Below, piece by piece: positions 43,102 to 51,639 of a DNA stretch of 64,000 bases (positions are counted from its first letter, which is position 1; every line of letters starts with the position of its first letter). Source of the DNA: Candidatus Borrarchaeum weybense (GTDB lineage: Archaea > Asgardarchaeota > Sifarchaeia > Borrarchaeales > Borrarchaeaceae). The stretch spans positions 224,001 through 288,000 of the forward strand of contig JAHQJS010000006.1 of assembly GCA_019057385.1 (NCBI GenBank), in the 5' to 3' direction. The notes beneath the pieces are model-generated. The model was given only the letters and a program-made list of their open reading frames with translations, did not search any database and was not told the DNA's origin. A program made the position numbers and the translations under genes.

Positions 43102-44007
43102 GTGAATTTGAAGATAGGAGTTGCAATTTCGTCATCAGGACAGACACTTCGTTGGCATGAATTGCAGTTAAAACGTGCATTGGATAAGAAAAATATCTCT
43201 ACAGTTTTCTTCCCAATAAAAGATACAATAGCAAATTATAGTAGATCCACTTTAGGTGTTCATTATAACAACTCTAATTTAATTAATGAACTAAGCGGCG
43301 TCCTAGTTAGGGGGCCAGGAATCGGCGTTTTGGAACAAATCTATTTTCGAATGAATGTGGTTAGACTCTTTGAGCACTCAGGTACTTATGTCATTAATTC
43401 GGCAAAAGCAATTGAGCAAGCAAGTGACAAATTATTTACGTCTATGGCTTTAGACGGGGCAAATATTTCAGTACCTCCAACCATGGTGGCACAGAAAATC
43501 GATGACGCAATGAATTTCTTTAAAAGCTATAAAGATATAGTAATAAAGCCGTTGTTTGGTTCAATGGGCCAGGGGATTACTCGCATAACAGATGAGGACA
43601 CAGCATATTTAATATTTGAAACTTTAGAGCAATTTGATTTGATCATTTATCTCCAGAAATTTATTCCACATGGAAATCGAGATATTAGAGCCTTGGTGAT
43701 AGGAGATCAAGTTATTGCAGCTATGTATCGAGTTGCAGAAAACAATGGTTGGAAAACGAATGTAAGTCTAGGAGCTACTCCTGAAGTGTGTGAGCTGAAT
43801 GAGAAGTTAAAAAAAATCTGCGTTAGAGCTGCTCAAATAGCAGGTTGCGAAATCGCAGGAATTGATATAATGATCCCCGAAAATGAACAGGATACTGATT
43901 ACTATCTACTTGAAGTAAATGCATGTCCTGCATGGGAAGGTCTGCAGAAAACTACAACATTAAACATAGCTGAAGTTATTGTAGATTATATAGCAACCAG
44001 AGTATAA
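43102..44007 (+). CDS. RimK-family ATP-grasp glutamate ligase (MptN/CofF-like), paralog 2
   Basis: GVLEQIYFR, IKPLFGSMGQG, QKFI, RDIR, WKTNVSLG and EVNACPAW. Confidence 0.85.
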   Translation: MNLKIGVAISSSGQTLRWHELQLKRALDKKNISTVFFPIKDTIANYSRSTLGVHYNNSNLINELSGVLVRGPGIGVLEQIYFRMNVVRLFEHSGTYVINSAKAIEQASDKLFTSMALDGANISVPPTMVAQKIDDAMNFFKSYKDIVIKPLFGSMGQGITRITDEDTAYLIFETLEQFDLIIYLQKFIPHGNRDIRALVIGDQVIAAMYRVAENNGWKTNVSLGATPEVCELNEKLKKICVRAAQIAGCEIAGIDIMIPENEQDTDYYLLEVNACPAWEGLQKTTTLNIAEVIVDYIATRV

Positions 44008-44035
44008 CGAAGAGCACATTGAAGGACAAATCTCG

Positions 44036-44671
44036 ATGAATACCACAATAGCGATTTTATCCGGAGGAAAATCTCATAGACTTAAGTCAGTTGTCCCAGA
44101 CAAAGGTTTACTATTGCTGAACAACAAACCAATGATTTTATGGGTGATAGAGGTTATTCAAGAACTCTCTAATAACATTCTAGTCATCGTAAGTTCAGAA
44201 AGTCAAAAAGAAAAATATCTTGAAGTTATAGAAAATCTTGCAGAAATGGTGATAGACAAAAGAGAGTCTATTAGGAGTTCCTTGCTGGGTGCACACGCAG
44301 CATTCATGCATGCAAGTGGGAAATACACCATTTTATTACCTAACGATACGCCTTTATTAAATCGAGATGCCTTACTCCTATTAATAGAATTATGTGAAGA
44401 CTATGATGTGGTATTACCCCGATGGCCAAACGGATTTATCGAGCCCTTACATGCCATTTACAGGACAGAAATTGCAAGAAAAAGATCAACGGAACTGATA
44501 CAGAAAAACCAATATAAACTAGATGGTCTGCTACAAAATGCAAACGTTTTGTATATCAATACTGAGATTTTCAAACAATTTGACCCTCAACTTAATATGT
44601 TTTTCAACGTAAATACCCCAGGTGATCTGAAGAAACTAAAAGGTTTAGTCAAAAAGCCTCAAAGGAGATAA
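44036..44671 (+). CDS. mobA: MobA-like nucleotidyltransferase
   Basis: ILSGGKSHR, DKGL, DTP, EPLHAIY and FNVNTPGDL. Confidence 0.8.
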   Translation: MNTTIAILSGGKSHRLKSVVPDKGLLLLNNKPMILWVIEVIQELSNNILVIVSSESQKEKYLEVIENLAEMVIDKRESIRSSLLGAHAAFMHASGKYTILLPNDTPLLNRDALLLLIELCEDYDVVLPRWPNGFIEPLHAIYRTEIARKRSTELIQKNQYKLDGLLQNANVLYINTEIFKQFDPQLNMFFNVNTPGDLKKLKGLVKKPQRR

Positions 44672-44677
44672 GATGAA

Positions 44678-45445
44678 TTGGAACTCCCGAAAATTGAAAT
44701 TTTTCCAATCCCCGGTATACCTATCATACGAGAAGGGGATAATACTGGAGAAATAATATGCCAATGTATAAACAACACGCGGATTGCTTTACAAGAAGAG
44801 GATATAATAGTTATAGCCCATGCGATAGTTTCAAGAGCGGAAGGAAGATTGGTAGATTTAAGGACGGTCATACCTTCTGAGTTTGCACAAACGATTTCAG
44901 ATCAATGCGATAAAGACCCAAGACATGTAGAAGTGATTCTCAGTCAAGCAAAGTCAATCGTACGGATGAAAGATGGAATATTAATAGTTGAATCAAAAAC
45001 ACCAGCAGGATGGGTAATGGCAAACGCAGGAGTAGATCAATCTAATTCTCTTGGAGAAAACTTTGCTCTTCTTTTACCAGAGAATCCAGATCGTTCCGCA
45101 GAAACAATTAGAAAAAAAATACAAGAAGAATATGGGGTTGAAGTAGCAGTAATTATTACAGATACTTTTGGCAGAGCACTGCGTTCAGCTGCAGTTAATG
45201 TAGCTATTGGGACATCAGGGATTAAACCGATCCTAGACTTAAGAGGAGTGAAAGATCTCTTCGGCTATACATTGACTAGCACTTGCGTTGCGATCGCAGA
45301 TGAACTCGCTTCAGCTGCAGAGTTAATTAGTGGACAATCAAATGAGGGGTTTCCTGTTATTGTAATTCGTGGATACAAATATCAAAAGGGAACAGAATCC
45401 GCATTGTTGCTTGCTAGGCCAAGAGAAAACGCTCTCTTTTGGTGA
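44678..45445 (+). CDS. cofE: Coenzyme F420-0:L-glutamate ligase
   Basis: GIPIIREGD, IVSRAEGR, ANAGVDQSN, TDTFGR, ADELASAA and PVIVIRG. Confidence 0.92.
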   Translation: MELPKIEIFPIPGIPIIREGDNTGEIICQCINNTRIALQEEDIIVIAHAIVSRAEGRLVDLRTVIPSEFAQTISDQCDKDPRHVEVILSQAKSIVRMKDGILIVESKTPAGWVMANAGVDQSNSLGENFALLLPENPDRSAETIRKKIQEEYGVEVAVIITDTFGRALRSAAVNVAIGTSGIKPILDLRGVKDLFGYTLTSTCVAIADELASAAELISGQSNEGFPVIVIRGYKYQKGTESALLLARPRENALFW

Positions 45446-45515: not shown

Positions 45516-47045
45516 ATGAAGGGTGACAACACCGAACTAAGAAAATGGCCTCCAGTTTCGGGTGATTGGGTACTAGGTAATCCAAACGCTCATATCGCTA
45601 TTATGACTTGCGGATCATATGAGTTGCCAAGTCATCTTGTAAACTCAAATAAAGATTATGTCGCAATTGCAGGTTTTTGTGAAGTTGAGAATGAGGGTAT
45701 AGCAAAAATATTACAAAATATATGCTCTAACGCATCTATTCGTGTACTAGTCGTCGCCGGCGAGAGAGTAAAAGGACATGAGCCCGGACAGAGTATTATT
45801 AGCCTCTATGAGAACGGCATTGATGATAATTTTACTATTATTGGAAGTAACGGTACCATACCCACGCTATTGCCCCGATATTTCAAAAATATAGATCCTT
45901 TCATATGGGTTTCACGCTTTCAACAGCAGATTGTGAATATTTTAGATTTGCGCAATGAAACAGATCTTAACAAAATTTCAGAAGAAATCGCTAAACTTGG
46001 AGAACAAGCATTTGAAACATTCCCCGATGAACCTCTCTTTCCTCCTGTGCAAAAGGTAAATTACGATTTTGGAACGTTGGCGAGTTCTGAATATGATATC
46101 ACTGAGATTGATGTAAAGAAAACTGAAAATATGCTTTTAGGAAATCCGCTCTTTTTTTCTAATACACAGCTACTGGTCTACGATATAGGTGGCACAAAGA
46201 TTGGAGGACAACGAGGAGAATACCCATGTGTCTTAGCTGGAACGATTTTTTATAAGGGTGATAAGACGGTGGAAAATTCCGATCGAGGATTATTTGACAA
46301 AAAACTAGCCGCTGATTACATTTATCAACAGGAACTAAAATCATTTGAATTTGAAATCCCATCAATGGTGCATGTCGTTGGTGAAACACCAATGGCTATT
46401 GAAAACTATCTATTGTTTGCTATAGAGCGTACAGACTCTCCGATTATAGTAGATTCCCCAGACGCTGCGACAAGGATTGCTGCAGTTCAGTTATCAAAAG
46501 ATATGGGGTTCGACAACCGAATAATTTACAATTCTATCTTTGTCCAAGATGAAGCGGAAATAAAGACGCTTACCGAAATTGGAGGCGTTGAATATGCAAT
46601 AATTTTACCATACGATCTCACTGTTGAAGAAAGGGTCGTAAAGACAAATGATCTCATTAATTTTGCAAAAGATGCTGTCAAGAAACCAATTTTGGATCCG
46701 GGTGTCCCTAAACTTGGTGAAGGGGGTTTTAGTGCACTCCATGCTGCATGGACCTTAAAAGATATTTACGGGTTCCCAATGGCTATTGGAATTCACAACT
46801 TACATTCAAGATTGCCAAAAAAGGAAAAAGGATTATCAGCAAAATCATTAGATTTTGGATTTAATTATGCGTTTCCATCAAATTTTGGGATAGATATTAA
46901 CATGTATGGACCGATAAAAAGGGCTGATAAAATCTTTCCAATGATTGCGGCTATTGAAACTATGATCGCTGATGAACTGATTAAAATCTACGATATATCA
47001 CCTAGACCTCCACATCCATATTATAAACTTGGTCTGGAAGGATGA
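45516..47045 (+). CDS. Soluble MtrA-MtrH fusion (corrinoid protein plus methyl-tetrahydropterin methyltransferase)
   Basis: MtrA part: WPPVSGD, ENEGIAK, SN..IR and VKGHEPGQS (Co-ligand His88). MtrH part: DIGGTKIGGQRGEYPCVLAGTIFY, IVDS, IYNSI, ILDPG, GIHN and MYGPI. No TM helix. Confidence 0.9.
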   Translation: MKGDNTELRKWPPVSGDWVLGNPNAHIAIMTCGSYELPSHLVNSNKDYVAIAGFCEVENEGIAKILQNICSNASIRVLVVAGERVKGHEPGQSIISLYENGIDDNFTIIGSNGTIPTLLPRYFKNIDPFIWVSRFQQQIVNILDLRNETDLNKISEEIAKLGEQAFETFPDEPLFPPVQKVNYDFGTLASSEYDITEIDVKKTENMLLGNPLFFSNTQLLVYDIGGTKIGGQRGEYPCVLAGTIFYKGDKTVENSDRGLFDKKLAADYIYQQELKSFEFEIPSMVHVVGETPMAIENYLLFAIERTDSPIIVDSPDAATRIAAVQLSKDMGFDNRIIYNSIFVQDEAEIKTLTEIGGVEYAIILPYDLTVEERVVKTNDLINFAKDAVKKPILDPGVPKLGEGGFSALHAAWTLKDIYGFPMAIGIHNLHSRLPKKEKGLSAKSLDFGFNYAFPSNFGIDINMYGPIKRADKIFPMIAAIETMIADELIKIYDISPRPPHPYYKLGLEG

Positions 47046-47048
47046 ATA

Positions 47049-48347
47049 GTGCTTAAATGTGCAGAAAACATTGAGGATCTCTATGGTCCGTATATCATTA
47101 GAGGAAGATCAATCGATTTAGTTTGGAGAACATATTTGTCAAAAATCATTGAACAAGGATTATCTGTAATCACAGAAGATAAACAACAGAAAACTAAGGA
47201 GACCTTATGTTGCATATCCCATTTGACTGACTGGAAAAGTGGGCGAATAGTTCCTAGAAATTATGTTGGATTATCACCAGAAATTATTAGAACACAATAC
47301 CTACCACAGTATCTAAGCGGCGAAAAGGGAGATCATACATACACCTACGGTTGGTGTGTAAGAAAAAGATTTGGATTTGACCAGACCAAACTGGCAGTCG
47401 AGCAATTAAAAACTTCAAGAACAGCATTCGCGCAACTTTGGAATCCTATAGAAGATCTAAAAAGTGCTAATCCACCTTGTGTTGACATAGCACTGTATTA
47501 CAATGATTTTTCAACAAAAATGCTCCACATGATTGCCTATATCCGTAGCAATGATATGGGACGTGCCCACTCTGATGATGTTGCAGGTCTCTACGAAACA
47601 TTTCTCCGTTATGACGGCGCCTTTAATTTATATGGAGCCCAGAAAGCTGCAGGTACATTAACAACCATTTCAGGTTCTGCTCATATATATGATACCTCAA
47701 TTCCTGAACTACAAGAAATTTTGGTTGGTTCTGTTACTTTAGCGAATGAAAATCAGCCTTTAAATACCAAAACTTTACCAGGGCCTATTTTGTTTCAATC
47801 AAGAACCTATCAAAGTTTCCTTTCAGAATTAGAAGTCAAATTCAAAAAATACTGCAGAGAAAATAATGGATCATTTGATCTCTTTTTTACTGTAAGATTT
47901 GATGATTTAGCTTCTTCTGATTTTGATTCGAGTCAAACATTAGAAAAATTAAATGACCAGATTAAAGATCCTTCGCTTGAAAGTACGATTCGAAATTATC
48001 AAGGAGTAACAGATACTGGGAATGCATCAAGTATTGATCAAATCGAGTTTATTGCAAAAAAACTTAGAAATGCACCGAGAAGTCGACGGATGGTTATTGC
48101 GCCTAATAATCCCTCCAAAAAAATCTATTCTTTGAATCCTATAATAGTTCAATTTCTTTATCGACTTGAAAAATTGTATACAATTGCATTATTCTCCAAT
48201 TACAGCCTTATAGATATTCCTAAGGCAGTAATTATGGTTAGAAATCTCCAAAATGAAGTCCTCAAAGGCACAGATATCGCTGCTGGACCTATAGTGTTTC
48301 TATTTATGCCTGGTACCCATAAAACCAAGCATTTCTCTCTTTCGTGA
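47049..48347 (+). CDS. Thymidylate-synthase-like protein with two tandem ThyA domains (one catalytic, one degenerate)
   Basis: N-domain: YTYG, DQ, WNP, PPC144, R166SND and AHIY. C-domain: DQIEFIAKKL...SRR and QF, without the Cys. Confidence 0.85.
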   Translation: MLKCAENIEDLYGPYIIRGRSIDLVWRTYLSKIIEQGLSVITEDKQQKTKETLCCISHLTDWKSGRIVPRNYVGLSPEIIRTQYLPQYLSGEKGDHTYTYGWCVRKRFGFDQTKLAVEQLKTSRTAFAQLWNPIEDLKSANPPCVDIALYYNDFSTKMLHMIAYIRSNDMGRAHSDDVAGLYETFLRYDGAFNLYGAQKAAGTLTTISGSAHIYDTSIPELQEILVGSVTLANENQPLNTKTLPGPILFQSRTYQSFLSELEVKFKKYCRENNGSFDLFFTVRFDDLASSDFDSSQTLEKLNDQIKDPSLESTIRNYQGVTDTGNASSIDQIEFIAKKLRNAPRSRRMVIAPNNPSKKIYSLNPIIVQFLYRLEKLYTIALFSNYSLIDIPKAVIMVRNLQNEVLKGTDIAAGPIVFLFMPGTHKTKHFSLS

Positions 48348-48397: not shown

Positions 48398-49561
48398 TCA
48401 TCCTTTGAGAAACAAAATCTTAAGCTCATTTTCGTGGAATTTAGCCTTTTCGATCTCCTTGTCCCGAATAATTGTGGGGAGATATAAAACACGCTTGTAT
48501 TTGCCTACACGAATAACCAGTGTGTTACGATCGTGCTCGATTGATAATTCACCTTTTTCGCTGAAAGGCAGTTTTATAACCAGTTCATAGTTTCCATTGT
48601 CTTGTTGCACAAGTTGAAACGGTCTTTCTGTAGTTAGAGTTTCAGTCGGATCTTTATCATGATAGAGCGCATCTGCCACTTTTCCAAGAAGCGTGGTACC
48701 TATGATTTCTTCCTGGAACAGTGGAACTGGAAGAATTGGAAGTGGATCAAATGCTTCATCGATCTGATTCATATAATCGGCTTGCTGTTGTTTCCAGCGC
48801 ACAAAAAATGGATCACTAACCTCCTCTGGAAGTAATCTATTGACTACAACTCCGTCAACGAGAAAACCAAACAAGTTCATAAAGGTTAATGTGCGCATCG
48901 ATTCTAGTAATACCATTTTTTCTGGATTAACCACCAACTTAACCGTTGTGACCGATGGATCTACAAGCAGTTCTCGAACTTCCATTGCTTCTTCAATCAA
49001 AGAATCTGTAACTTTTTGCACATCTGCACCAGGTAATGAGACTGGTAAAAGCATCCGAAGTGGCTTTAATTCCTCAAGTATTATTTTTTCGAGCTCCACC
49101 AGATTTCGACCAAGTGAACCGATGACCTCTGGAAAACTCATTAAACGAAGTGTATGTCCTGTAGGCGCCGTATCCAATACTATAACATCGTACTCGTTTA
49201 TGTACTGACGGATAGTTAAAAGACTAAATAACTCATCCATTCCAGGAATTACTACCATCTCACTCGCTAAAGCTTGGTCAAACCCTCTCGCAGTAAATAA
49301 TTGTGTAAGATACTTGAGTACAATCTCCCATTTTTCCTCCATCAGGCGCTGGGAATCAATTTCCAGACCATATAAATTCTCGCTTATCTTTTTCGGGGAG
49401 TGACCACCTAAATTAATACCTATTGCGTCACTTAAACTATGAGCTGGATCTGTGCTGAGCATTAAAGTTTTTTTTCCATTCTCTGCACACCGTAAACCTG
49501 TAGCTGCCGACACAGTTGTCTTTCCGGTGCCACCTTTTCCTGTAAACACTAAAATTCGCAT
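48398..49561 (-). CDS. ArsA-family ATPase with C-terminal HSP20-like domain (Get3d-type)
   Basis: TGKGGTGKTT, STDPAHSL, PGMDEL, DTAPTG and NPEKMV; C-terminal LVIRVGKYKRVLYLP...LKILF. Confidence 0.88.
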   Translation of the reverse strand: MRILVFTGKGGTGKTTVSAATGLRCAENGKKTLMLSTDPAHSLSDAIGINLGGHSPKKISENLYGLEIDSQRLMEEKWEIVLKYLTQLFTARGFDQALASEMVVIPGMDELFSLLTIRQYINEYDVIVLDTAPTGHTLRLMSFPEVIGSLGRNLVELEKIILEELKPLRMLLPVSLPGADVQKVTDSLIEEAMEVRELLVDPSVTTVKLVVNPEKMVLLESMRTLTFMNLFGFLVDGVVVNRLLPEEVSDPFFVRWKQQQADYMNQIDEAFDPLPILPVPLFQEEIIGTTLLGKVADALYHDKDPTETLTTERPFQLVQQDNGNYELVIKLPFSEKGELSIEHDRNTLVIRVGKYKRVLYLPTIIRDKEIEKAKFHENELKILFLKG

Positions 49562-49669: not shown

Positions 49670-50281
49670 TTATTCAACACTTATCTCAAAAGATTTCGAA
49701 TTGTCGCCAGAATTCTTTTTTGGGTTACTTAGAGTATTGTTGACAGCCTCTAACTCACTTTCTAGAATTTTTTTATACTGCATGAGCACCTCTACAAGCT
49801 GATCTGGCTTTACAATTTGAATTAACCATTCTCTTAATTGTTTACCTCTATCTTCCATAAGCTGTATAACATCTTTTAGTCTGTTTTCTACATATGTTTG
49901 GTAAGGGCTAAAATATTCGTCGATAAAACTAACAAATTTGCCTAGTAGGTCGATTTCTTGATCAAAACGTTCTGCAATAATCTTTAGAACACCTTTTCCC
50001 TTGTCCGTTAATTGATACATCTTTTTTGTGCCACCCTCTCCACTTTCAGTGATATTCTGAATTAACTTATCATTTTCTAATCTGGAGAGTGTAGGATATA
50101 TTGTGCCGCTTTTTGGCTCCCATGCGCCACCAAACTTCCCTTTTAGATCTTGTATAATATCTGAACCTGCCATCGGCTTTTCTTGTAGCAGCACTAATAT
50201 TAAAAATTCAACTGGGCTCACTTTTCGTTCAAGTACATTTCTGAAAAGCCCTCTACCTAATCCTCGACCAAGCCAAAACAT
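49670..50281 (-). CDS. PadR-family transcriptional regulator
   Basis: LILVLL...PM.G, WEPKSGTIYPTLSRLE and KKMYQLTDKG. Confidence 0.9.
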   Translation of the reverse strand: MFWLGRGLGRGLFRNVLERKVSPVEFLILVLLQEKPMAGSDIIQDLKGKFGGAWEPKSGTIYPTLSRLENDKLIQNITESGEGGTKKMYQLTDKGKGVLKIIAERFDQEIDLLGKFVSFIDEYFSPYQTYVENRLKDVIQLMEDRGKQLREWLIQIVKPDQLVEVLMQYKKILESELEAVNNTLSNPKKNSGDNSKSFEISVE

Positions 50282-51009: not shown

Positions 51010-51639
51010 TCACTTTTTATGATGTTTCCCAAAAAAATTGATAGAAATGTCTTGAATGATCTCCTGTGATTTTTGTATAGACTGAGTTGTATCAATAACT
51101 GAGTATTCTTCTTCTTTCGCCCTTTCAAGGAAATTATCACGTACTTTGCTAAGAAACTCTCTATTTTCAAATGATTCTAGTTTTTCTCTTCTATTTAGGC
51201 GCGCCATAGCATCCTTTGGACTTATATCAAGGATAAAAGTAATGTCGGGCCAAACTATGCCTTTGTTAATAGCCTTGATCCACTCTCTTGTTAATTCTTG
51301 CGCGGATTGATATGCTAATGAAGATTCAATATATCGAGTTGTAATTACGATTTGTCCTTGTTTAAGGGCGGGCTCTATAACTTCCTTCACATGTTGTATT
51401 CTATCTGCAGCAAATAATAGTGCAAACATCTCAGGCTGCTTAATTTCGAACTTGTCTTGCAATGCTTCTTTTATTAAGCGGCCAACGGCACCCTTAGTAG
51501 GTTCTCTAGTAAGAATTACACTAAATCCTTGTTCAACCAAAAACTCATATAGAAGTCTACTATGAGTAGACGTTCCAGAACCGTCGATTCCTTCAAATGC
51601 GATCAGAAAACCTCTCTGATTTGATTGTGGGTTCGTCAT
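51010..51639 (-). CDS. tmk: Thymidylate (dTMP) kinase
   Basis: IAFEGIDGSGTST, TREP, LLFAADR, RYIESSLAYQ and PD. Confidence 0.92.
   Translation of the reverse strand: MTNPQSNQRGFLIAFEGIDGSGTSTHSRLLYEFLVEQGFSVILTREPTKGAVGRLIKEALQDKFEIKQPEMFALLFAADRIQHVKEVIEPALKQGQIVITTRYIESSLAYQSAQELTREWIKAINKGIVWPDITFILDISPKDAMARLNRREKLESFENREFLSKVRDNFLERAKEEEYSVIDTTQSIQKSQEIIQDISINFFGKHHKK

Follow-up and report, generated by a model that had tools for sequence, protein, structure and literature searches.

A thymidylate synthase-fold enzyme of Asgard archaea with aspartate at the uracil-selecting position may make thymine in an undescribed way

The single thymidylate synthase (TS)-fold gene of the Asgard archaeon Candidatus Borrarchaeum weybense, judged from its sequence, appears to encode the organism's only thymidylate-forming enzyme, and its substrate is most likely still dUMP, which would be converted to dTMP (probability about 0.5). 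Methylation of dCMP followed by deamination is a clearly less probable alternative, and the remainder is divided among other readings. Thymidylate synthesis is essential and, to our knowledge, just two enzyme solutions for it exist, ThyA and ThyX. Five Asgard families, closed genomes of Atabeyarchaeia and Freyarchaeia included, appear to depend on a TS-fold enzyme that departs from the textbook in two respects, as it carries Asp in place of the uracil-selecting Asn and replaces the homodimer with a fused, single-site pseudo-dimer, and that is genetically locked to a corrinoid methyltransferase. The database annotation 'thymidylate synthase' hides these features, and a literature search found no published description of an Asp-type fused Asgard TS; the terms dCMP and methanopterin are absent from a survey of Asgard thymidylate metabolism (PMC9931769).

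The gene lies in a 64,000-nucleotide stretch (the window) of contig JAHQJS010000006.1 (positions 224,001 to 288,000), across which GC content is even. The gene and its main active-site codons, in window coordinates, are as follows:

47049..48347, + strand, gene of the 432-aa TS-fold protein in the open reading frame list, with a GTG start 3 nt past the stop of the upstream gene
47478..47480, + strand, codon of Cys144, which follows two Pro residues and matches E. coli Cys146, the catalytic nucleophile; invariant in alignments
47544..47555, + strand, Arg166-Ser167-Asn168-Asp169, corresponding to the phosphate-binding Arg and Ser and the pterin-contacting Asp of TS
47577..47579, + strand, GAT codon of Asp177, at the position of E. 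coli ThyA Asn177 and T4 gp42 Asp179
47682..47690, + strand, His212-Ile-Tyr214, corresponding to E. coli His207 and Tyr209, which contact the deoxyribose 3'-OH

In profile searches, the protein matched Pfam PF00303 at 49.8 bits (cut-off 24.3) and the methanogen-type ThyA equivalog TIGR03283 at 113.8 bits, below the cut-off of 174.55. A structure model, proposed as a check in the first-pass annotation of this DNA, was obtained with AF2 for all 432 residues at a pTM of 0.88, and its top fold matches (Foldseek, VIA-align; Z 17-20) were chains of TS, MilA and T4 dCH, all consistent with a TS-family fold. Bases 47544-47591, cgt agc aat gat atg gga cgt gcc cac tct gat gat gtt gca ggt ctc, translate as RSNDMGRAHSDDVAGL. 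With solved TS chains (VZV 4xsc and T. cruzi 2h2q), HMMER gave pairwise alignments that have no gaps from the RS.D motif to residue 177 and in which the second Asp of SDD falls over the Asn of the TS motif; a family profile alignment likewise places query D177, E. coli N177 and T4 gp42 D179 in the same column. The first-pass annotation had placed Asp at the ThyA Asn177 position, and these gap-free alignments bear this out. The residue numbers R166, S167, N168, D169 and D177 coincide with E. coli ThyA numbering by chance. Glu51 is kept across the archaeal family and is a candidate counterpart of the TS general acid/base Glu58; the profile alignment to E. coli ThyA spans residues 94-216 only.

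The architecture of the protein does not match that of a TS homodimer with two active sites, as one chain holds two TS folds with catalytic residues in the N-half only:

47049..47753, + strand, N-half (residues 1-235), the catalytic TS domain, matching TIGR03283 positions 1-199 of 201
47415..47423, + strand, Ser123-Arg124-Thr125 at the position of ThyA Ser-Arg126-Arg127, the Arg pair being lost from the N-half
47766..48344, + strand, C-half (residues 240-432), a degenerate second TS fold
48081..48089, + strand, Ser345-Arg346-Arg347 of the C-half, invariant and aligned to the SRR motif, corresponding to ThyA Ser-Arg126'-Arg127', which reaches into the partner site

The N-half, for which model residues 11-233 gave VIA-align Z values of 17-20, retains C144, R166, S167, D169, H212 and Y214. 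At the Ser123-Arg124-Thr125 site, other members of the clade have K-N-V or K-S-V, while the Asn-type relatives described below mostly have S/T-R-R. The C-half carries Pro-Ile-Ile in place of the catalytic Cys and lacks equivalents of Arg166, Asp169, Asn177, His and Tyr, with only Ser-Arg-Arg kept. Its TS ancestry is indicated by a ThyA profile match at residues 323-365 (E 6.8e-8) and, when it was modelled by itself (pTM 0.81), by listed fold matches that were TS chains or a TS-scaffold design (4f2v), with a best E of 8e-9. According to the alignment, the dNMP-binding set is complete across the chain, with Arg166, Ser167, His212 and Tyr214 in the N-half and the Arg-Arg pair in the C-half only. 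The pTM of 0.88 for the full chain suggests that the two halves pack like a TS dimer. The single chain would then mimic a TS homodimer with one active site, in which the N-half may provide the Cys144 nucleophile, Arg166/Ser167, Asp169, His212/Tyr214 and the base-contacting residue 177, and the catalytically dead C-half may lend Arg346/Arg347, the pair that a TS subunit normally takes from its partner. The first-pass annotation was silent both on this fused architecture and on the constant MtrA-MtrH partner of the gene.

Asp177 is a property of a whole lineage. It is invariant in 13/13 aligned Asgard homologues, which are 37-88% identical to the query, and the D class, 43 sequences in total, has Asp in this column throughout; Asn occupies it in all 155 relatives that have the catalytic Cys and lack Asp there, namely methanogen-type ThyA and the MtrA-like/ThyA/DUF4346 fusions. 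The catalytic Cys is invariant in both groups. When column 177 was excluded from the tree, the Asp sequences with a double domain, 40 in number, formed one monophyletic Asgard clade (support 99, stem length 0.81). Asp169 is conserved at 98% in the Asp-type clade, and further clade-specific changes occur at 102, 103, 171, 176, 178, 179 and 185; in the pocket these comprise Trp102, loss of Arg103 (Cys/Ala103), small residues at 171 and 179 and an acidic residue at 176. Neutral drift from Asn to Asp was rejected as an explanation, since GAT and AAT differ by a single transition and yet Asp is found in all 40 clade members and Asn in the 155 others, which points to selection. The first-pass annotation had also regarded a chromosomal, non-viral gene of this type as unusual, and the wider survey agrees: the gene is chromosomal, vertically inherited and the sole TS-family gene in five Asgard carrier families, forms one clade and has housekeeping neighbours. 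Together with the even GC content, these features led us to reject an origin from a provirus or mobile element. Three other Asp177 proteins of the family that keep Arg-Arg (P0076, P0152 and P0194) had no relatives in the viral-contig or genome-contig collections; one 8.3-kb metagenome contig (L022) carries ORFans and a helicase and has a mobile-element-like look. Methanogen ThyA was beyond the reach of a word-based homologue search in which only the N-half served as query.

The enzyme has to be considered against the thymidylate pathway around it. A search of the genome for deaminases and for another thyA or thyX, as the first-pass annotation had suggested, found a ComEB-type dCMP deaminase (contig 5, 310092-310553) and no further TS-family gene, the PF00303 matches being confined to the gene described here; ThyX was found neither in this genome nor in the carrier families f1, f2, f8, f13 and f18, and thymidine kinase was not found in this genome. 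As the sole TS-family gene in a genome in which ThyX was not found, the TS-fold enzyme must therefore sit in the dTMP pathway. The step after thymidylate formation is encoded nearby:

51010..51639, - strand, dTMP kinase gene, 2.7 kb downstream (PF02223, 175 bits; TIGR00041, 180.9 against a cut-off of 83)

Of the carriers, five were tested for dTMP kinase, and every one has it. In this genome the ComEB-type dCMP deaminase is an unremarkable orthologue that shares 55-63% identity with its counterparts from genomes that have Asn-type ThyA; among carriers it occurs in this genus only and was not found in f2, f8, f13 and f18. Overall, no dCMP deaminase turned up in 14 of the 18 carriers, three closed genomes among these, and the PF00383 protein of one carrier (G038) is TadA-like. 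If dCMP were used, the Asp type should go together with a dCMP deaminase, and these counts run in the reverse direction. Carriers in which ComEB was not detected have dCTP deaminases (142-227 bits) and also keep a dUTPase-like gene. As a marker of the Asp lineage, dCTP deaminase proved not to be specific, since ThyX-bearing families have the same dUMP supply (f16, 5/5; f19, 7/7) and the enzyme is a general alternative to ComEB. The dCTP deaminases, the ordinary ComEB and the dTMP kinase of the carriers indicate that the enzyme fills the slot of a dUMP-consuming TS.

The second constant feature of the locus is the gene directly upstream:

45516..47045, + strand, soluble MtrA-MtrH fusion of 509 aa (Pfam, NCBIfam), residues 9-175 MtrA-like and residues 220-486 MtrH-like
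45687..45689, + strand, codon of Glu58 in the MtrA domain, corresponding to MtrA Glu54 (alignment to 5l8x and 5laa)
45777..45779, + strand, codon of His88 in the MtrA domain, corresponding to MtrA His84 (alignment to 5l8x and 5laa)

MtrH is a methyltransferase that binds methyl-H4MPT. Against PDB chains, the fusion scored 127.9 bits with MtrH and 97-100 bits with MtrA. In all 18 carrier genomes the TS-fold gene lies directly downstream of the fusion gene, full-length MtrA-MtrH orthologues occur in exactly these 18 Asp-type genomes and always adjacent, and the fusion is the only neighbour conserved in the 7/7 loci compared. Neither the length of the fusion nor its alignment indicates a membrane-anchor region, and the GAIPF..EN motif of the MtrA domain is kept only in part. 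In MtrA, His84 is the lower axial cobalt ligand and is hydrogen-bonded by Glu54 (PMC4915002). The full Mtr complex has been reported absent from Atabeyarchaeia and Freyarchaeia, and the describers of the Asgard MtrAH fusion left open the fate of its methyl group and the acceptor (PMC11291895). The TS-fold enzyme is a concrete candidate for this acceptor partner, and the two proteins may act as a two-gene unit.

A bolder possibility, which we hold tentatively, is that MtrA-MtrH and the TS-fold pseudo-dimer constitute a cobamide-dependent pyrimidine C5-methyltransferase. In such a system, MtrH would pass the methyl group of methyl-H4MPT to the cob(I)amide of MtrA, and the nucleotide activated by Cys144 (dUMP, or dCMP protonated by Asp177) would receive it from methyl-Co(III). 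The conservation of Asp169 suggests that pterin is probably still bound by the TS domain, which weakens the methyl-cobamide idea. If the idea were true, it would represent a third route to thymine nucleotides, redox-neutral and without dihydropterin, in archaeal relatives of eukaryotes and, with dCMP as the substrate, the first cellular thymidylate pathway that methylates first and deaminates later.

Under the preferred reading, in which dUMP is the nucleotide methylated and dTMP the product, Asp177 would be protonated and act in a rebuilt pocket either as general acid or through a hydrogen bond; protonation is probable because a second acidic residue adjoins at 176. The rebuilding of the pocket (Trp102, the loss of Arg103, the small residues at 171 and 179 and the acidic 176) would be tied to altered one-carbon delivery and not to an altered acceptor, with the one-carbon unit delivered by MtrA-MtrH, possibly as methyl-cobamide derived from methyl-H4MPT. 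Among the changed loop positions, 171, 172 and 176 contact the cofactor in E. coli TS, and their change fits a changed donor. A natural TS that has Asp177 and is dUMP-specific is not known to us, and if this enzyme is one, the Asn/Asp specificity rule would be overturned. That rule is the main argument for a cytosine substrate, as already invoked in the first-pass annotation: T4 dCMP hydroxymethylase (gp42), MilA, BcmA and the phage 5hodCMP synthases combine Asp with cytosine, Asn goes with uracil, and the characterised TS-family enzymes with Asp here in the cited papers all take cytosine substrates (PMC8670742, PMC5175136, PMC13326640). Reciprocal mutant switches, including Asn-to-Asp mutants of TS that act as dCMP methylases, are cited in these same papers.

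On that basis, a possible but rather less probable alternative is that dCMP is the substrate, with Asp177 protonating N3 and binding the 4-amino group, and that the resulting 5-methyl-dCMP then loses its amino group to give a thymine nucleotide. In this genus the ComEB-type enzyme would carry out the deamination; in other carriers it would fall to an unrecognised deaminase or, at the triphosphate level, to dCTP deaminase. The invariance of Asp177, set against the universal Asn of relatives without it, speaks for dCMP, as does the pocket: the loss of Arg103 together with Asp177 and Asp/Glu176 should make it more negative, a better fit for protonated cytosine than for the enolate of uracil, and Trp102 is common to T4 gp42 (YGW). 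Cytosine-specific enzymes also lead the structural matches to the N-half, AfhB at Z 20.0 and MilA at Z 18.9 as against 17.9 for L. casei TS. dCMP deaminases accept 5-methyl-dCMP, and this genome encodes one. However, that orthologue is unspecialised and would also yield dead-end dUMP, the deaminase was not found in most carriers, and these carriers keep dCTP deaminase and a dUTPase-like gene, whose sole known purpose is the supply of dUMP, which would be left without a consumer; a route at the triphosphate level would, moreover, flood the dNTP pool with 5-methyl-dCTP. What the first-pass annotation had proposed, a dCMP or CMP substrate and methylation before deamination, therefore stands in part. 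The clade-specific Asp and the published rule keep dCMP in play, and the deaminase of this genome would allow the two-step order; CMP is disfavoured, as Ser167 and the C-half Arg346/Arg347 form a deoxyribo signature that leaves dCMP as the cytosine candidate, and the retained dUMP supply and dTMP kinase, with the deaminase lacking from the search results of 14/18 carriers, count against both proposals. If the enzyme is a dCMP methylase, it would represent a new cellular route to thymine.

Two further readings appear much weaker. That the product is a modified cytosine (5-methyl- or 5-hydroxymethyl-dCMP) destined for the cell's own DNA through pre-replicative modification, as in some phages, or that both dUMP and dCMP are used, is improbable. 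Asp177 would suit such an enzyme. So would Asn141, which lies at the Leu143 position; the clade has Asn, Asp or Glu at this site, and hydroxymethylases are likewise polar there. According to Liu and Santi, the Asn of canonical TS reportedly excludes dCMP and is not required for catalysis. However, a polar residue 141 is also found in the Asn-type archaeal relatives and is therefore not diagnostic; as markers of product or substrate, the Leu143 and His147 positions are uninformative, since these relatives have the same residue classes at both. With no other source of dTMP, a cell whose enzyme only modified cytosine would have no thymine. The conserved genes near the locus include no glycosyltransferase, dCTPase or other hypermodification gene, and the TS-fold gene is a vertically inherited chromosomal one in five families. 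The use of the product as a modified base, which the first-pass annotation had offered as an option, is accordingly improbable, as the sole TS-family gene of a genome in which ThyX was not found must serve the dTMP pathway. Less probable still, and very unlikely overall, is an enzyme acting on a non-nucleotide (a substrate from the metabolism of the H4MPT or F420 cofactors, either a pterin or another molecule resembling a pyrimidine) or an inactive relic. The gene follows MptN-like, MobA-like and CofE genes in the window, and its TIGR03283 score lies below the equivalog cut-off. Yet conservation of these cofactor-gene neighbours does not extend to other genomes, the dNMP-binding set (Arg166, Ser167, the partner Arg-Arg and His212/Tyr214) and the catalytic Cys are intact, the gene is the only TS candidate in thymine-containing genomes with dTMP kinase, and purifying selection is strong across homologues 37-50% identical to the query.

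Among characterised systems, the best-scoring curated family for the N-half is methanogen-type ThyA (TIGR03283; Methanopyrus ThyA, 209 aa). Both share a short TS core that ends soon past His-x-Tyr, as well as the Cys, Arg-Ser-Asn-Asp and His/Tyr motifs, and at the Leu143 position both are polar; the methanogen-type enzymes, however, are of a single-domain (~200 aa) homodimer type with Arg-Arg, Asn177 and Arg103, whereas the Asgard protein is a fused double domain with Asp177, Cys/Ala103 and a constant pairing with MtrA-MtrH. T4 gp42 and the TS mutants N177D and N229D (dCMP methylases) have Asp in the same column. T4 gp42 further shares the RSND motif and the Tyr-Gly-Trp before the catalytic Tyr region, and the fold search matched T4 dCH chains as well; it differs as a viral homodimer with Arg-Arg that makes hydroxymethyl-dCMP for DNA hypermodification and has a separate TS beside it, in contrast to the cellular Asgard gene, which is the only TS-family gene, whose product is a fused pseudo-dimer and whose surroundings lack hypermodification genes.

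The MilA/BcmA CMP hydroxymethylases (PDB 5jnh) also carry the Asp (MilA Asp186) and superpose with Z 18.9 and an rmsd of 1.9 over 200 residues. They serve an antibiotic pathway and differ in the ribo-CMP signature, in which MilA Ala176 occupies the Ser167 position and Lys133' the Arg127' position (PMC5175136); a MilA-like ribo-CMP substrate was rejected, the Asgard protein having the deoxyribo signature of Ser167 and Arg346/Arg347. The top structural neighbour of the N-half is AfhB and the 5hodCMP synthases (PDB 9iqu and 9iqc; Z 20.0, 198 residues, rmsd 2.3). AfhB, a phage flavin-dependent dCMP 5-hydroxylase, shares the short TS fold and Asp177 and is a precedent for a switched co-substrate in the TS fold. 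Enzymes of this kind are viral and aerobic and have Asn in place of Asp169 as their signature (PMC13326640), whereas the Asgard protein keeps Asp169, and a flavin-dependent 5-hydroxylase was rejected on this ground.

The nearest large relative group is that of the MtrA-like/ThyA/PterinBD-DUF4346 fusions of bacteria and archaea (~470-500 aa, one from a KSB1 bacterium; 30-35% identity), in which a TS core is likewise tied to an MtrA-type domain. These differ in having Asn177 and Arg-Arg and no MtrH, one is fused to a dCMP deaminase, and their MtrA-like domain is mostly without the cobalt-ligand His (a gap in 43/52). The fusion encoded by the partner gene is the Asgard 'MtrAH fusion' of Valentin-Alvarado et al. 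2024 (PMC11291895); a TS-fold enzyme as the partner of a corrinoid system is not previously described. With the Mtr and MtgA-type corrinoid systems, the partner shares the His84/Glu54 equivalents and an MtrH-type domain homologous to the solved MtrH and MtgA. In the Mtr system of methanogens, the acceptor is coenzyme M, reached via membrane subunits, whereas the conserved neighbour here is a TS-fold enzyme.

The thymidylate synthase (TS)-like gene encodes a protein of 432 aa, the relatives of which are termed Asp type or Asn type according to the residue in the column of E. coli ThyA Asn177.

47049-48347, + strand: TS-like gene, an ORF of 432 aa

Bases 47544-47591 give RSNDMGRAHSDDVAGL on translation. 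In a gap-free HMMER alignment to solved TS, the query segment 'yirsndmgrahsddvagl' is paired with 'yqrsgdmglgvpfniagy' of VZV TS, which places the second Asp of the query over the Asn of the TS motif, and a profile alignment with both references puts query D177, E. coli ThyA N177 and T4 gp42 D179 in a single column. The first-pass annotation was therefore correct in assigning Asp177, without gaps, to the Asn177 position, and the observation is stronger than was apparent there. The query and E. coli ThyA numbering agree by coincidence.

D177 is invariant in 13 Asgard homologues (37-88% identical to the query), as are C144, R166, S167, D169, H212 and Y214. HMMER, run exhaustively against 1.8 billion representatives, yielded 307 relatives; among the matches listed in which the catalytic Cys is kept, 43 carry Asp and 155 carry Asn. 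Two groups make up the Asn class: short ThyA of the methanogen type, for example from Methanopyrus and Hydrothermarchaeota, and a large set of fusions of the MtrA-like/ThyA/PterinBD-DUF4346 kind. In a tree computed with column 177 left out, 40 double-domain Asp sequences form one clade (support 99) on a long stem, and two further Asp lineages are isolated. Judged from these sequences, Asp177 is a selected, clade-specific feature, and the entire pocket has been rebuilt in the Asp class, beyond residue 177 itself.

Residues of the Asp and Asn classes by position
Position 102: Asp class Trp (as in T4 gp42); Asn class polar
Position 103: Asp class Cys/Ala; Asn class Arg (89%)
Position 171: Asp class Ala/Gly; Asn class Phe/Tyr
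Position 176: Asp class Asp/Glu; Asn class mixed
Position 178: Asp class Val; Asn class Ala
Position 179: Asp class Ala/Ser; Asn class Phe/Tyr
Position 185: Asp class Phe; Asn class Gln

Another Asp177 protein of the archaeal-type TS family, 92% identical to the relative P0194, is encoded on metagenome contig Ga0334882_1006982 (locus L022, 4013-4804, + strand). It keeps the Arg-Arg pair of the homodimer type, and its neighbours (same-strand ORFans without Pfam matches, a DEAD/ResIII helicase and an Imm5-like protein) look like those of a virus or mobile element. The E. coli Leu143 column (query Asn141) holds a polar residue throughout the archaeal-type TS family, methanogen ThyA with Asn177 included. 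At this position, which is taken to distinguish enzymes that methylate from those that hydroxymethylate, canonical TS has Leu143, which keeps water out; the polar residue raises the question of how the short archaeal enzymes ensure that a methyl and not a hydroxymethyl group is added.

The N-terminal half of the query (residues 1-235) covers the full length of TIGR03283 at a score below the cut-off, and its closest structural matches include AfhB (Z 20.0), MilA (Z 18.9) and L. casei TS (Z 17.9). In the C-terminal half, the ThyA profile match is confined to about residues 323-365; modelled by itself, this half adopts a confident fold (pTM 0.81), for which each of the Foldseek matches listed is either a TS chain or a design based on a TS scaffold. 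In TS dimers, the arginines of the SRR motif reach into the partner's active site. Ser345-Arg346-Arg347 of the C-half aligns to this motif, while by alignment the same half has Ile at the catalytic Cys position and lacks equivalents of Arg166, Asp169, His and Tyr. The N-half is missing the Arg pair (S-R-T in the query, K-N-V in others), which Asn-type relatives keep as S/T-R-R. Complementary residue loss of this kind is expected of a fused heterodimer with one active site, and the full-length model (pTM 0.88) suggests dimer-like packing of the two halves.

The Asgard archaeal genome under study (4.18 Mb, 8 contigs, completeness 100%, contamination 7%) contains no other PF00303 match, and searches for ThyX, thymidine kinase and DHFR found none. 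The check for deaminases and other thyA/thyX genes proposed at first pass returned one ComEB-type dCMP deaminase and no second TS; one archaeal dUTPase-like protein is also encoded. A dTMP kinase gene lies 2.7 kb downstream of the TS-like gene, with only two genes in between.

48398-49561, - strand: ArsA/Get3-like ATPase with an HSP20-like tail
49670-50281, - strand: PadR-family regulator
51010-51639, - strand: dTMP kinase (TIGR00041, 181 bits)

Of 201 Asgard genomes surveyed, 18 carry the double-domain Asp type; they belong to families f1, f2, f8, f13 and f18 and include three single-contig genomes (G012, G023 and G038); query homologues include ones named Njordarchaeota, Freyarchaeota and Jordarchaeia. 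ThyX was found in none of the 19 other genomes of these families, and the TS-like gene is again the sole PF00303 match in five of their genomes, three of them closed, which makes it the sole thymidylate-forming candidate in all these lineages.

Residue evidence and pathway evidence on the substrate disagree. Residue 177 dictates dUMP versus dCMP, and N177D turns TS to dCMP (PMC8670742); Asp is common to MilA, BcmA and T4 CH, with Asn in TS and dUMP hydroxymethylase (PMC5175136), and N177D also occurs in phage 5hodCMP synthases (PMC13326640). The signature in the MilA paper (Ala/Lys for ribo, Ser/Arg for deoxyribo; PMC5175136) predicts a deoxynucleotide substrate for the query. A flavin-enzyme type was rejected, as its signature Asp169-to-Asn change is missing from the query. 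The cytosine substrate put forward in the first-pass annotation is plausible from the Asp177 rule, the more acidic pocket and the T4-like Trp102, but the pathway context does not favour it. An enzyme making 5-methyl-dCMP should be accompanied by a dCMP deaminase, and the opposite pattern is seen: the deaminase is present in the query's genus (5/5, including the genome under study) but was not found in the other carrier families (f2 0/1, f8 0/5, f13 0/3, f18 0/6). A family-level search confirmed this absence, the single PF00383 protein of G038 being TadA-like.

Carriers lacking ComEB instead have dCTP deaminases well above the cut-off and dUTPase-like genes, and dTMP kinase is present in 5/5 genomes tested; the Asp-type enzyme therefore sits exactly in the slot of a dUMP-consuming TS. 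As dCTP deaminase also occurs in the ThyX families (f16 5/5, f19 7/7 genomes), it is an alternative to ComEB across the phylum whichever TS is present. Methylation of dCMP followed by deamination could proceed via an unrecognised deaminase, or a dCTP deaminase acting on 5-methyl-dCTP, but nothing would then consume the dUMP that the enzymes of these genomes produce; this route is considered less likely than use of dUMP. The substrate is dUMP with a probability of roughly 50%, dCMP followed by deamination comes next, and dual or other roles account for the remainder. Each of two closed genomes carries a pair of dCTP deaminase paralogues (about 225 and about 145 bits) and a weaker dUTPase-like match.

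G012, C1:498521-499072 and C1:1404251-1404781: dCTP deaminase paralogues
G023, C1:577937-578488 and C1:1215571-1216092: dCTP deaminase paralogues

The gene directly upstream encodes a soluble MtrA-MtrH fusion and ends 3 nt before the GTG start of the TS-like gene.

45516-47045, + strand: MtrA-MtrH fusion

Its MtrA domain scores 97-100 bits against solved MtrA, with the cobalt-ligand His (His88, MtrA His84) and its Glu partner both retained; the MtrA-like domain in fusions of Asn-type relatives is mostly without this His. The genomes with full-length orthologues (E < 1e-147) coincide with the 18 Asp-type genomes, and the orthologue always adjoins the TS-like gene, while the remaining genomes match the MtrH part alone (≤38% identity), and the fusion is the sole conserved neighbour (7/7 loci from four families). 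This conserved pairing suggests that MtrA-MtrH may deliver the one-carbon unit to the TS-fold enzyme, possibly as methyl-cobamide, a tentative proposal, since Asp169 is conserved and points to a TS domain that may still bind a pterin. If true, it would represent a new redox-neutral thymidylate chemistry. The paper on the Asgard 'MtrAH fusion' does not settle which methyl acceptor is used and makes no mention of thymidylate (PMC11291895), and no paper linking MtrH to thymidylate in the one-carbon-donor sense was found in the literature searched.

Head-to-tail upstream of the pair (43102-45445, + strand) lie genes for an MptN-like alpha-L-glutamate ligase (below cut-off), a MobA-like nucleotidyltransferase and CofE (F420 glutamyl ligase); the other six genomes examined do not share this cofactor-gene neighbourhood. 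At least three more stand-alone MtrH-like genes are present in the genome (C6:451326-452210, C7:859474-860385 and C7:860498-861415). In many f7 genomes, the distance between the short Asn-type ThyA gene and MtrH-like genes is a constant 17-20 kb, a conserved synteny (G127, C1:255033-255587 and 274023-274958; G102, C1:226747-227367 and 206818-207747). The fusions that join an MtrA-like domain and PterinBD-DUF4346 to an archaeal TS core of the Asn type (P0037-P0048, P0052 and many others) are a large, widespread family. At 50% identity it comprises >100 clusters, of which some are bacterial (e.g. KSB1), and one member (P0040) has an extra C-terminal dCMP deaminase; no mention of DUF4346 was found in the literature searched.

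The TS-family enzyme on which the f1, f2, f8, f13 and f18 lineages may depend is new in three respects, namely Asp177, the fused single-site pseudo-dimer and the obligatory corrinoid-protein partner, and no earlier description of this enzyme was found in the literature searched. Among known systems, T4 gp42 shares with the query's Asp class both the Trp at position 102 and the Asp in the 177 column.
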